Shown: positions 21,135 to 34,055, counted from the stretch's first letter. The stretch is 64,000 nucleotides of DNA from an uncultured Chloroflexia bacterium (GCA_963748235.1 CAVVHT010000009.1:1336225-1400224); one strand, 5' to 3'. Made by a program: numbers and translations. The notes: generated by a model from the sequence alone, not told the origin.

Positions 21135-21924
21135 GTGGCGCAGCTTGATTTATTCCGCCTTGACGATCGCGTCGCGTTGATCGCCGGTGGCGGTGGCGCG
21201 ATCGGATCCGCGCTCGGCGCCGCCCTGGCTGGTGCGGGCGCGCGCGTCGCCCTGCTCGGCCCGACAGCTGAGCGGCTCGACCGCGCGGCCAAGTCCATCC
21301 GGAAGCAGGGCGGCGAGGCGATGACCGTCGGTCGCCGACGCTACCTCCGAGGAGGAGTGCGATCGCGCGGTGGCCGAGGTCGTTGCCCAATTCGGCCGCC
21401 TCGACATCGTCGTCAACGCCGTGGGTGGCGGCGCGGGCAAGGTGCTGTTCGACGCCGAGGCTTATCCGCGATGACTCGTGGGACTGGATCTTCGAGCTCA
21501 ACCTGCGCTCGACGGTCGTGCGCCACCCAGGCGGCGGTCAAGCCGATGATCGACGGGGGACGCGGCGGCAAGGTGCTCAACATCACCTCGGTCCGCGGCA
21601 CGCTGGGCATCAATGCCGGCTACTCGGCGTACGTTGCGGCGAAGGGTGCGATCAACTCATTGACTCGCCAGTGGGCGACCGAGTGGGCCAAGCACGGCAT
21701 CAACGTCAACGCCATCTCGCCGACGTTCGTCGACACACCGCAGGTCGCCAGCATGCTCGCCGACGAGAAATTCAAGGCCGGGCATCATCAATCGGATCCC
21801 GATGGGACGCGTTGGGACGACCGACGACCTGGTCGGTGCGGCGATCTTCCTGTGCTCCGACGCGTCGAACTTCATCACCGGCCAGATCCTCGGCATCGAC
21901 GGCGGCCTGACGGCGACTCAATGA
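21135..21924 (+). CDS. SDR family oxidoreductase, KduD/gluconate-5-DH-like (frameshifted)
   Basis: DLFRLDDRVALIAGGGGAIG, YSAYVAAKG (YxxxK), NVNAISP, FITGQILGIDGG. Confidence 0.85.
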
Positions 21925-21931
21925 GGCCGAC

Positions 21932-22852
21932 GTGATGGACGGCATCGAGAACGTCACCGCCAACGTCTTCACGCATACCGGGCTACGCGGCAGCAACCCG
22001 AGCTTCGTCGTCACGTCCGACGGCGTGGTCGCGATCGACACTCCCCAGCTGCCGTCGCGCGCTGTCGAGTGGCGCCGCGAGGCCGAGTCGCACGGCCCGA
22101 TTCGCTACCTGATCAACACCGAGCATCACGTCGATCACATCTTCGGCAACTACTACTTCAGGGGCTCGGGGCGACCGTCGTCAACCACCGCGAGCTGTGG
22201 GACCGATTCATGGTTCCGGGGCCCGAGATCGACCCGTTCGACTACGCCCATGAGGCGCTCCCCGCCGACGACCCCGACGGTGAGGCCATCTTTCCCGCCC
22301 GGGACGACGTACTACCGCGATCCGAACAAGGGCTCGATCGTGTTCACCGGCGACATCACTCTCGGCGTTGGCGGTCACACGTTCGAGCTGCTCCACACGC
22401 CCGGCCACACGCCAGGCCAGACGACAGTGCACGTTCCCGAGGAACGTGTCGCGTTCACCGGCGACACGCTCTTCTCCGGCTGCCAGACGTGGCTGATGAC
22501 GTCGGATGTCGATCAGTGGGTCGCGGCACTCGACCGGATCCGCGGCCTTGACGTCGACTTCCTGGTGCCCGGACACGGCCCAGTGGTCACGAAGCAATAC
22601 CTCGACGTGCAGCGCTCTCACCTGCTGTCCTGGAAGAGCGCCGTGGCAGACGCCGTGTCGAAGGGTTGGTCACGCGACGAGACGGTCGCGCGAGTCAGCT
22701 TCGCCGACGACTTCGGCCCGGTCGACATCGGCCAGGAGTACATGCTCGAGTACATCCAGACGTGGAACGCCGGTGCGCTGTGGGACCAGCTGACCGGCTC
22801 GCCTCCGGGCGGCGGCATGCCTCGGCCGCTTGACCCACGCGCCCCATCCTAG
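21932..22852 (+). CDS. MBL-fold metallo-hydrolase (frameshifted)
   Basis: NTEHHVDHIFGN (variant HxHxDH), TPGHT, FTGD, VPGHG. Confidence 0.85.
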   Translation: MMDGIENVTANVFTHTGLRGSNPSFVVTSDGVVAIDTPQLPSRAVEWRREAESHGPIRYLINTEHHVDHIFGNYYFRGSGRPSSTTASCGTDSWFRGPRSTRSTTPMRRSPPTTPTVRPSFPPGTTYYRDPNKGSIVFTGDITLGVGGHTFELLHTPGHTPGQTTVHVPEERVAFTGDTLFSGCQTWLMTSDVDQWVAALDRIRGLDVDFLVPGHGPVVTKQYLDVQRSHLLSWKSAVADAVSKGWSRDETVARVSFADDFGPVDIGQEYMLEYIQTWNAGALWDQLTGSPPGGGMPRPLDPRAPS

Positions 22853-32903: not shown

Positions 32904-32954
32904 GGGGATCCTCCGTGGGTTGGTAGAACGCCTTGGGCCGATAATCAGTCGGGT

Positions 32955-34055
32955 ATGGCCGGACCGTCAAGCACGATCGACAGCGCGCTGCTGCGCATGA
33001 CCCAGCAGACGCCCACGCAGTACTGGAATGACTCGTGCGCGGTGGCGGAGCTGGAGCACGCGGTCGAGCGGGGCGCTACCGGCGCCACGTCCAATCCAAC
33101 GATCGTGCTCGAGGTGCTGGGCAAGGAGAAGGATTACTGGCTGCCACGCGTCCGCGAGCTGGCCGAGGCCAACCCAACGTGGGCCGAGGTCGATCTGACC
33201 TGGGCGATCGCTGAGCAGATGGCCGTGCGCGGCGCCGCCGTTTTGATGCCCGTGTACCAGCAGAGCGGCGGTCGCACGGGCCGAATGTCGATCCAGATCA
33301 ACCCTGCCAATCACCGCGACCCGGCACGGATGCTCGAACAGGCACGCAGGTTCAGCACTCTCGCACCGAACATGCAGATCAAATTCCCGAACACCGCGCC
33401 CGGCCTTGAAGCGATGGAGGAAGCCACGGCCGAGGGCATCAACATCAACGCCACGGTCAGCTTCAGCGTCGCCCAGGCAATCGCCGCCGCGGAGGCGGTC
33501 GAGCGCGGACTGCGCCGCTTCGCCGAGTCAGGCGGCGATAGTGACGCGATGACGCCGGTGATCACGCTGATGATCGGCCGCATGGATGATTGGGTGAAGG
33601 TGCTCACCGAACGCGACGGCATAGCGCTCGATCCCGCCGCGGCCAACTGGGCCGGCATTGCCGTCTTCAAGCGCGCATACCCGCTCTTCCGAGAGCGCGG
33701 CTATCGCGCCCGACTGCTGGCGGCGGCGTACAGGCATCGACTGCACTGGACCGAGCTCGTTGGCGGCGACGTCACGCTGACGATGCCGTTCGCCTGGCAG
33801 GCCCGCTTCGACGCGAGTGGCATCGAGCCGTCGCCGCGCATCGACACTCCGGTCGATCAGGCGCTGATCGATGAGCTGTGCACCCGCATTCCCGACTTCA
33901 AACGCGCTTTCGATCCGGACGGCCTGTCGCCTGCCGAGTTCGAGAGCTTCGGCCCAAGCGCGCGAACATTGCGCGCATTCATCAAGGCTTATCACGACCT
34001 ACAGGCAACAATCCGCGACGCCTATCTACCCGATCCGGACGTCCGGCCCGCCTGA
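32955..34055 (+). CDS. Transaldolase family protein
   Basis: WNDS, GATSNPTI, MQIKFP (Schiff-base Lys), ININATVSFSVAQA. Confidence 0.88.
   Translation: MAGPSSTIDSALLRMTQQTPTQYWNDSCAVAELEHAVERGATGATSNPTIVLEVLGKEKDYWLPRVRELAEANPTWAEVDLTWAIAEQMAVRGAAVLMPVYQQSGGRTGRMSIQINPANHRDPARMLEQARRFSTLAPNMQIKFPNTAPGLEAMEEATAEGININATVSFSVAQAIAAAEAVERGLRRFAESGGDSDAMTPVITLMIGRMDDWVKVLTERDGIALDPAAANWAGIAVFKRAYPLFRERGYRARLLAAAYRHRLHWTELVGGDVTLTMPFAWQARFDASGIEPSPRIDTPVDQALIDELCTRIPDFKRAFDPDGLSPAEFESFGPSARTLRAFIKAYHDLQATIRDAYLPDPDVRPA

Follow-up and report, generated by a model that had tools for sequence, protein, structure and literature searches.

HpeHI, CreHI and PpsAB are two-component dikinases, which phosphorylate phenols via a swivel histidine (JBC 2025, PMC12167813). 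Here these and other described systems are compared with a gene cluster of an uncultured Chloroflexia bacterium (GCA_963748235.1), found at positions 21,135 to 34,055 of a stretch of 64,000 nucleotides (CAVVHT010000009.1:1336225-1400224) that was analysed as a whole and is called the window. The cluster includes a 601-amino acid protein encoded at 31098-32903 on the minus strand, for which we use the shorthand P601, a three-subunit molybdenum (Mo) hydroxylase of the xanthine dehydrogenase (XDH) family and a short pyruvate, phosphate dikinase (PPDK). P601 shares the architecture of the H/PpsA proteins of the two-component dikinases, a substrate-binding region followed by a C-terminal Ser-His swivel; the serine before the histidine has been noted for PpsA and CreH (PMC12167813). 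The ATP partner of the described enzymes is an ATP-grasp only, whereas the partner in the window has a swivel histidine of its own and an extra domain. The downstream enzymes also differ, being carboxylases or oxidases in the described systems and a Mo hydroxylase in the window.

The pairing of a histidine-relay kinase with a Mo hydroxylase has one genetic precedent, found in the 3hpd cluster of Ensifer adhaerens HP1, and the chemistry of this precedent has yet to be explained. In this strain HpdA1-4 converts 3-hydroxypyridine only together with orf9 (PPDK-like) and orf10 (phosphoenolpyruvate (PEP)-utilizing), and knock-outs of orf9 and of orf10 each lose growth (bioRxiv 10.1101/2020.01.08.898148). 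That study detected no intermediate and left the role of the dikinase unexplained. The 3hpd cluster and the window have in common an XDH-family Mo hydroxylase adjoining PPDK-like and PEP-utilizing genes. The 3hpd cluster also has a GntR regulator and an ABC transporter, like most of the Limnocylindria relatives considered below, together with a separate fourth subunit of the SRPBCC family and maleamate-pathway genes. The last two were not seen among the 36 open reading frames (ORFs) scanned in 17-40 kb of the window, and no genome-wide search was made for them. In turn the window has a fused domain on its PPDK (h240), a pair of metallo-beta-lactamase-fold (MBL) and SDR genes and a transaldolase-fold (TAL-like) gene that are not reported for the 3hpd cluster; for this comparison orf9 and orf10 were taken by their description.

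The Mycobacterium tuberculosis protein VadK (Rv1127c) is a truncated PPDK that autophosphorylates His422 (EMBO Rep 2026, PMC13400623). It was co-expressed with its operonic partner Rv1126c, and a wash with 2 M NaCl was needed to remove this partner (PMC13400623). Like VadK, the kinase part of the window fusion is a short PPDK without the PEP/pyruvate domain. VadK and its partner are separate proteins, whereas in Limnocylindria their putative counterparts are one polypeptide, which always occurs with a PpsA-like protein and a Mo hydroxylase.

Rifampin phosphotransferase (RPH; PDB 5FBS, 5HV1) is a single chain with its own ATP-grasp. Its swivel and part of its substrate-binding domain align with P601, which has no ATP-grasp. 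A cultured relative, Thermomicrobium roseum DSM 5159, encodes a P601 homologue with 49% identity on its megaplasmid (NC_011961, 59-72 kb). This gene adjoins genes for Mo, FeS and FAD subunits and GntR, ABM, Tm-1-like and PEP-hydrolase genes. The T. roseum cluster also contains a 323-amino acid partner that is ATP-grasp only, and cyclase and FAH-family hydrolases; h240, MBL and TAL-like genes are absent.

The preliminary description of this locus had presented a putative undescribed system. The genes that it named are all present in the window according to Pfam and NCBIfam scans, but the 3hpd genetics and the two-component dikinases mean that the pairing of a dikinase with a Mo hydroxylase is not undescribed, and VadK is a further precedent. 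A literature search gave no paper that pairs phenylphosphate synthase with the xanthine dehydrogenase family. The distinct features of the window variant, as predicted from its genes, are a VadK-type kinase fused to a small partner, an acceptor resembling PpsA and an MBL/SDR pair in tight linkage. We consider it fairly probable that the cluster is conserved in Limnocylindria (Chloroflexota) with an accessory role in catabolism, and that this soil bacterium has one copy of it. The core would join a phosphohistidine dikinase system with an XDH-family Mo hydroxylase of three subunits and with the MBL hydrolase/SDR pair. As to function we favour, with some reserve, the use of ATP to phosphorylate a hydroxylated (hetero)aromatic compound, in a reaction coupled to hydroxylation by the Mo enzyme.

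The C-terminal PEP-utilizers swivel domain (residues 509-579) is the sole Pfam domain of P601. The protein has no PPDK_N ATP-grasp, in line with its first description as a His-swivel protein lacking that domain. The swivel motif is GGVSSHPAV, in which a serine precedes the histidine, and residues G531, G532, H536, A538 and V539 are invariant in the alignment (33/33 rows). The swivel aligns with the RPH structure PDB 5FBS, including the catalytic histidine. Among the NCBIfam models, PRK08296.1-5 matches residues 22-585 with 185 bits, which is below its cut-off. P601 also matches the C-terminal two thirds of the RedH, PigC, PRK06241 'PEP synthase' and RPH models, all below cut-off; residues 221-585 match positions 532-879 of RedH, and residues 379-584 match positions 681-864 of RPH. 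A large region of P601 is highly conserved, with a mean column identity of 77%.

The motifs FWxxDxLHxPxPL and NGY, which had been said to recall PpsA, are present in P601 and were found by regular expression in 63 and 79 of its 80 orthologues, respectively. These N-terminal motifs are also seen in T. roseum and, in a looser form (FW..H.P.P, NG[YR]), in a HpeH-like protein of Rhizobium; they are not found in the PEP-utilizing proteins of Diaphorobacter or Mycobacterium branderi. At the level of sequence P601 combines the traits of the H subunit of a two-component dikinase, which are a C-terminal swivel with the catalytic histidine and a substrate region with homology to the domain of RPH that binds RIF. 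P601 is predicted to be the acceptor subunit of a small-molecule dikinase of the PpsA/HpeH type, and its putative substrate pocket is of the type found in PpsA, CreH, HpeH and rifampin phosphotransferase.

Two absences hold in the assembled genome, which is 72.6% complete. There is no gene of the PpsB type encoding an ATP-grasp only, a partner whose presence elsewhere would have spoken against the preliminary description, the PPDK_N matches in the genome being a canonical PPDK and the fusion gene described next. With the ATP-grasp-only protein of T. roseum as the query, only the fusion gene was matched in 80 related loci and in the genome itself. The genome likewise gave no match to the UbiD-type carboxylases (PF01977), to which the carboxylase of phenylphosphate had been compared; a control search with this family matched 9 of 14 known genomes. 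The carboxylase expected beside phenylphosphate synthase in anaerobic phenol degradation is thus missing.

The PPDK gene occupies 22849-24866 on the minus strand. The preliminary description had taken a 435-amino acid ORF with PPDK_N and PEP-utilizers domains (23559-24866, minus strand) for a 'mini-PPDK'. This ORF is ruled out as the true gene, because it is a chimera of reading frames. Matched by tblastn with intact orthologues, the gene runs through frames -3, -1, -3, -1 and -2 into a 240-amino acid ORF at 22849-23571 on the same strand, with frame changes at approximately 24592, about 24300, 23585 and 23381-23400. In 32 relatives the PPDK part and the part represented by the 240-amino acid ORF (h240) are a single ORF of 690-770 amino acids. 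The real protein in the relatives is of about 720 amino acids, with its own swivel histidine and a conserved extra domain at the C-terminus. It has an ATP-grasp and a swivel histidine and lacks the PEP/pyruvate domain, as expected of a short PPDK of the VadK type. The orthologue L024 passes the cut-off of the short PPDK model NF004531 (502.4 bits against 456; profile positions 23-461 of 534), and the frameshifted ORF of the window scores 274 bits. The swivel motif is GGLACHAAV in the window and GGLASHAAV in 36 of 40 long copies. The catalytic histidine motifs are thus retained in both P601 and the fusion.

The h240 domain lies at approximately 22852-23415 in the window and retains all the invariant residues of the domain. 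The last 206 residues of the L024 fusion match no Pfam or NCBIfam family. In the predicted structure (mean pLDDT 96.7) the domain consists of a winged helix and a four-helix bundle. The modelled winged helix resembles MarR, with a Z score of 12.2 and a root-mean-square deviation of 1.4 A over 73 residues. The modelled bundle matches only generic helical bundles. Its best fold match is the FAT domain of p130Cas (Z 12.5), the P1 (HPt) domain of CheA is at rank 13 among unrelated bundles (Z 9.5), and Foldseek returned nothing at E <= 0.001. The bundle is rich in invariant polar residues, as in NDH.D, ASPRVDSYH and WFELHE. A predicted complex of P601 with h240 scored 0.28 against a mark of 0.32, in a prediction made without controls.

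Proteins homologous to h240 are found outside the Chloroflexota as separate genes. On a Diaphorobacter plasmid the genes for a PEP-utilizing protein (572 amino acids), an h240 homologue (206 amino acids, 38-41% identity) and a short PPDK (506 amino acids, 45% identity) are adjacent. In M. branderi a short PPDK gene directly precedes that of a 200-amino acid h240 homologue and adjoins a PEP-utilizing gene. Rhodococcus oxybenzonivorans has a free-standing h240 homologue beside a short PPDK and a PEP-utilizing gene. Aligned with hhalign, the h240 profile matches a 201-amino acid mycobacterial protein over 197 columns (probability 99.9, E 3.6e-36); this protein belongs to a large mycobacterial family labelled 'MarR family', of which the M. 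branderi homologue is also a member, and the homology extends over the full length of the domain. Searches of the ESM Atlas with h240 gave only clusters that are unnamed or labelled 'MarR', of about 204-216 amino acids. In this lineage the short PPDK is, from these alignments, fused to a protein that Mycobacterium, Rhodococcus and Diaphorobacter encode separately, in a neighbouring gene. The Limnocylindria fusion looks like VadK joined to its partner, a likeness that runs via the 201-amino acid mycobacterial family, to which Rv1126c may belong. On plasmid pRB98 of R. oxybenzonivorans (L094, 313-16430), the h240 homologue and a 579-amino acid 'pyruvate, phosphate dikinase' are situated within a biotin-carboxylase/carboxyltransferase cluster with PEP-utilizing genes, so a pair of the VadK type also accompanies Hpe-like carboxylation pathways.

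The three subunits of the Mo hydroxylase follow P601 on the minus strand. They are the FAD-binding subunit (30257-31079; Pfam FAD_binding_5 and CO_deh_flav_C), the [2Fe-2S] (FeS) subunit (29733-30260; Fer2 and Fer2_2) and the molybdopterin-binding large (Mo) subunit (27565-29736; Ald_Xan_dh_C, MoCoBD_1 and MoCoBD_2). These domains make up the set of an XDH-family molybdenum hydroxylase, with molybdenum cofactor binding, two [2Fe-2S] clusters and FAD. The four genes are in succession, as in the operon proposed from 32903 to 27565, with short or overlapping junctions, the ATG of the FeS gene overlapping the stop codon of the FAD gene. The start of the FAD gene had to be revised. Its true start is a GTG at 31079, not 31006, and the N-terminus MRPFIYDRPTSLDEA matches the orthologues in a different frame; the first 24 codons are in this other frame because of one frameshift near 31005-31012.

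The Mo subunit is below the cut-off of every NCBIfam equivalog. Its closest solved relative is the alpha subunit of 4-hydroxybenzoyl-CoA reductase (1RM6) with 344 bits, the next scoring 224 bits. The scores against the models of this reductase are 449 bits for TIGR03194 (cut-off 995) and 125 bits for TIGR03195 (cut-off 405). An inserted [4Fe-4S] loop in the FAD subunit is what we take to be the defining trait of 4-hydroxybenzoyl-CoA reductase. One cysteine is visible in the main-frame translation of the FAD subunit (249 amino acids), which indicates that the loop is missing.

The MBL gene (21932-22852; Pfam Lactamase_B) and the SDR gene (21108-21935, start approximate; adh_short in two stretches) are both on the plus strand. 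Their solved relatives are generic, in all 36 matches for MBL and in the best 60 of 209 for SDR. A lactone route of the vitamin B6 type was considered for the pair and rejected, as no 4-pyridoxolactonase was among the 36 MBL matches and no pyridoxal 4-dehydrogenase among the best 60 of the 209 SDR matches. A PHP-family phosphoesterase-like gene (25060-25958, plus strand) was recognised from a sequence motif and gave no Pfam match.

The conservation of the cluster was studied by tblastn of the window proteins against the 80 best related loci. P601 is present in all 80, with 65-77% identity, and its closest relatives are from metagenome-assembled genomes (MAGs) labelled Chloroflexota or Limnocylindria. 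The FAD, FeS and Mo subunits were found in 70, 66 and 64 loci, the PPDK part in 62 and the h240 part in 53. The TAL-like gene was found in 54 loci (two of them weak, below 45% identity), MBL in 28, SDR in 22, PHP in six and a LigD gene in one. Many of the loci end at contig ends; 38 are fully flanked, with at least 9 kb on both sides of P601. In these 38 loci FAD, FeS, Mo and h240 are each present in all and PPDK in 37, followed by the TAL-like gene in 28, MBL in 23, SDR in 19, PHP in four and LigD in one.

The order of the genes varies among the related loci. The PPDK gene has a downstream position on the same strand in 37 loci, and in 25 it lies upstream in divergent orientation. MBL adjoins SDR wherever both were detected, and PHP, where found, is placed between the Mo gene and MBL. 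In the window the cluster is bordered by housekeeping genes, at one end by hrcA and at the opposite end by lepA and a HemW-like radical SAM gene. The HemW-like gene and lepA are found in 0 of the 80 related loci, which indicates that the block stays together across different contexts.

In 201 genomes surveyed from the class, unpublished ones included, a P601 orthologue (identity of at least 64%) was identified in 45; genomes without one include G159, G067, G106, G096, G112 and G151. Of the 45 genomes with P601, 42 have the h240 domain; outside them there is one weak match (38% identity). MBL likewise occurs in 42 of the 45, and the 156 genomes without P601 have no copy. For h240 and for MBL alike, the three P601 genomes that lack it are fragmented (120-340 contigs). 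The genomes are related and not independent, so these counts are given as a pattern, not as statistics. Five of the six families named in the preliminary description are a real unit; P601, the Mo enzyme, the PPDK-like protein and the MBL/SDR pair occur together across genomes in several gene orders and contexts, and the transaldolase is the loosest. We read the putative core as P601, the Mo enzyme, the PPDK fusion and the MBL/SDR pair. PHP is an occasional member of the cluster.

Several additional genes were observed in the relatives. In most of them a 295-amino acid protein is encoded between a GntR/FCD regulator and the FAD subunit. This protein (L024:12534-13421) belongs to no Pfam or NCBIfam family and has a P-loop-like motif, GGESNHGKS, which we presume to be reminiscent of HprK or PEPCK. 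It gave no match by tblastn or by HMM in the genome of the window. In 11 of the 80 loci a Tm-1-like ATP-binding gene and a 'PEP hydrolase family' gene are directly upstream of P601 (among them L020, L027, L031, L047, L053 and L065; the pair is also seen in L090 at 6490-8593), and the window is without them. This pair has 70-77% identity to the pair of T. roseum.

The TAL-like protein (32955-34055, plus strand; Pfam TAL_FSA) is encoded divergently from P601 across 51 bp. It shares with transaldolase B (TalB) and fructose-6-phosphate aldolase (FSA) the TAL_FSA fold, the Schiff-base lysine and the positions of the phosphate-binding arginines. In the window sequence and its 45 orthologues the lysine is kept in 46 of 46, the position of the canonical catalytic glutamate (TalB Glu96) is glutamine in 46 of 46, and the position of TalB Phe178 and the FSA tyrosine is methionine in 46 of 46. 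It thus differs from transaldolases in having glutamine instead of glutamate, as in FSA, and from FSA in having methionine instead of tyrosine. The roles given here to these lysine, glutamate/glutamine, tyrosine/methionine and arginine positions are assumed. The combination of glutamate and Schiff-base lysine that marks a canonical transaldolase is not present, and all NCBIfam transaldolase models score below cut-off. A canonical short transaldolase is encoded elsewhere on the contig, so the TAL-like protein is an extra paralogue.

The TAL-like subfamily is present in 72 of the 201 genomes. The gene occurs in 44 of the 45 genomes with P601, in several of which it is on a different contig, and also in 28 of the 156 without P601 (26 when G087 and G123 are both removed). 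In the related loci it is either upstream and divergent or directly downstream, and TAL-like, aldehyde dehydrogenase, split transketolase and cupin genes are often one block divergent from P601. The association of this gene with the system is loose: it is present in 28 of the 38 fully flanked loci but also in those genomes without P601. It probably belongs to an adjacent module rather than to the fixed set of the cluster.

Approximately 13 frame changes are found in 21.1-31.1 kb of the window, four each in SDR and the PPDK fusion, two each in MBL and PHP, and one in FAD. The P601, Mo, FeS, TAL-like and LigD genes have none. MBL has a compensating pair of insertion and deletion at about 22165 and 22309, the tblastn pieces of SDR are in frames 3, 1, 2, 3 and 1, and the matches of PHP orthologues are spread over three frames. 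None of the sites that were checked lies in a homopolymer. No public sequencing run holding this genome was found; the share of sampled words recovered was 0.07 in each of three soil metagenomes. Contigs of these metagenomes, with about 90% identity, do not have the extra or missing bases at 21330, 21472, 22165, 22309, 23381, 23585, about 24295 and 25657, and they also differ from the window at 25593-25597 in the PHP gene. These contigs are from other strains and so cannot separate assembly error from mutation. The ORFs of the genome have a median of 288 amino acids and an N50 of 406, compared with 308 and 401 in loci of long-read MAGs and 317 and 453 in those of short-read MAGs; the statistics are nearer to the long-read loci, which is suggestive only. 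At 1-7000, 11331-12964 and 59600-61700 of the window the ORFs consistent with G+C at third codon positions (GC3) are short or overlapping, as in 21-26 kb, which suggests a patchy distribution of frame changes over the contig.

The favoured mechanism would begin with the VadK-type short PPDK, which has an ATP-grasp and its own swivel histidine and would supply the ATP side. ATP would load a histidine, and the phosphoryl group would then be passed to the hydroxyl of a (hetero)aromatic compound in the pocket of P601. The Mo enzyme would hydroxylate the phosphorylated compound with water, and the MBL (or PHP) hydrolase and the SDR would process the product. The gene content, the domains, the fusion and the co-occurrence are what was observed, and the passing of phosphate between these proteins, the order of the steps and the class of substrate are what we infer. 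A sugar or glycoside had also been proposed as the substrate, and the analysis found no pointer to one. There is some chance, though a small one, that the short PPDK is the ATP-loading module of a three-part dikinase and that the phosphorylated hydroxy-(hetero)aromatic compound is the obligatory substrate of the Mo hydroxylase. In such a dikinase the PPDK swivel histidine may pass the phosphoryl group to the swivel histidine, or to the bound substrate, of the PpsA-like subunit. The transfer may be helped or relayed by the four-helix bundle, which is rich in histidine, aspartate and glutamate, is Rv1126c-like and is fused here.

Several observations weigh against substrate phosphorylation coupled to hydroxylation. 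Because the genomes are kin, the co-occurrence counts overstate the support. The direct analogy to PpsAB fails at the ATP partner, since the partner in the window carries a swivel histidine of its own. No ring-cleavage or maleamate-pathway genes were found among the ORFs scanned in 17-40 kb. The window copy is without the GntR regulator and the HprK-like 295-amino acid protein that 51 of the 80 relatives have between P601 and FAD. The frame changes in the PPDK fusion, SDR, MBL, PHP and FAD could be decay rather than assembly error. VadK itself has been read as regulatory and not as a substrate kinase (PMC13400623).

That reading of VadK leads to the main rival, a regulatory phosphorelay, which we regard as unlikely. 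The VadK-type kinase and P601 would control the Mo enzyme, or transcription via the winged helix, by binding or by phosphorylating proteins, in the way that has been proposed for VadK and the methylcitrate cycle; no metabolite would be phosphorylated. This rival would agree with the description of VadK as a histidine kinase that acts in regulation and interacts with enzymes (PMC13400623), with the MarR-like winged helix at the start of the fused domain, and with the 3hpd study, in which no phosphorylated intermediate was detected (bioRxiv 10.1101/2020.01.08.898148). Pure signalling is hard to fit to the conserved region of P601, however, which shares homology with the segment that binds the substrate in RPH, RedH and HpeH-type kinases, and a separate GntR regulator is also found in most relatives. 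It is very unlikely that the adjacency is one of descent between unrelated neighbours, in which the PPDK fusion, SDR and PHP would here be decaying pseudogenes. The concentration of frame changes in 21.1-31.1 kb and the close kinship of the genomes would fit this, but the gene order is rearranged with the set still together, all 80 loci have flanking genes other than those of the window, MBL is found only in P601 genomes and h240 likewise but for the one weak match, the same trio recurs in other phyla, and the h240 of the window keeps all its invariant residues.

Two other routes would keep substrate phosphorylation and change the chemistry. In a sugar or polyol route the dikinase could phosphorylate a sugar-like hydroxyl, with the Mo enzyme as an aldehyde oxidoreductase and the TAL-like protein rearranging the carbon skeleton together with the split transketolase and aldehyde dehydrogenase of the relatives. 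The divergent block of these genes, the lysine and phosphate-binding arginines kept in the TAL-like protein (in their presumed roles) and the scores of the FeS and Mo subunits with the glyceraldehyde dehydrogenase models of NCBIfam are consistent with such a route. We nevertheless judge it improbable, as the TAL-like gene is found in 28 of 156 genomes without P601 and on another contig in several with it, the P601 homologue of T. roseum (49%) is accompanied by cyclase, FAH and ABM genes and no transaldolase, and the characterised relatives of P601 all act on phenolic or enolic hydroxyls. A reductive dehydroxylation, in which the phosphorylated aromatic hydroxyl would be a leaving group removed by a Mo enzyme like 4-hydroxybenzoyl-CoA reductase, is also a poor candidate. 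The alpha subunit of that reductase is the closest solved relative of the Mo subunit (344 vs 224 bits) and the NCBIfam model 4hydrxCoA_A is its top match, but the score of 449 is well short of the family cut-off of 995, the FAD subunit has one cysteine and no inserted 4Fe-4S loop in its main-frame translation, and the sole studied precedent, 3hpd, performs a hydroxylation.

Limnocylindria are abundant, uncultured bacteria of soil and freshwater. They provide dozens of natural variants of this system, including the VadK-type fusion and copies that differ in having or lacking the HprK-like protein. The work on 3-hydroxypyridine left open why some Mo hydroxylases need a dikinase. If substrate phosphorylation is true, it would extend the 'phosphorylate first' strategy of aromatic catabolism from carboxylases to molybdoenzymes. 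A three-part dikinase, if true, would be an ATP-driven hydroxylation or dehydroxylation without a counterpart among characterised molybdoenzymes. The fusion also gives a testable reading of the role of the VadK partner family, and the tight co-occurrence of MBL names a further candidate step.

The window is on contig 9 of a genome of 3.04 Mb in 10 contigs and has a G+C content of about 67%. A stand-alone LigD primase-polymerase gene (25944-26891, minus strand) separates the Mo operon from the PPDK fusion. It matches LigD_Prim-Pol of Pfam at full length (294 bits), and its presence in one of the 80 related loci makes it look like an unrelated insertion. Between hrcA and the cluster (18335-21087) there is a MarR-family gene at 19738-20226, flanked by ORFs of 468 and 286 amino acids without a Pfam family. 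A 74-amino acid ORF without a Pfam match (27296-27520, minus strand), just 3' of the Mo subunit gene, is strongly coding with a GC3 of 0.89.

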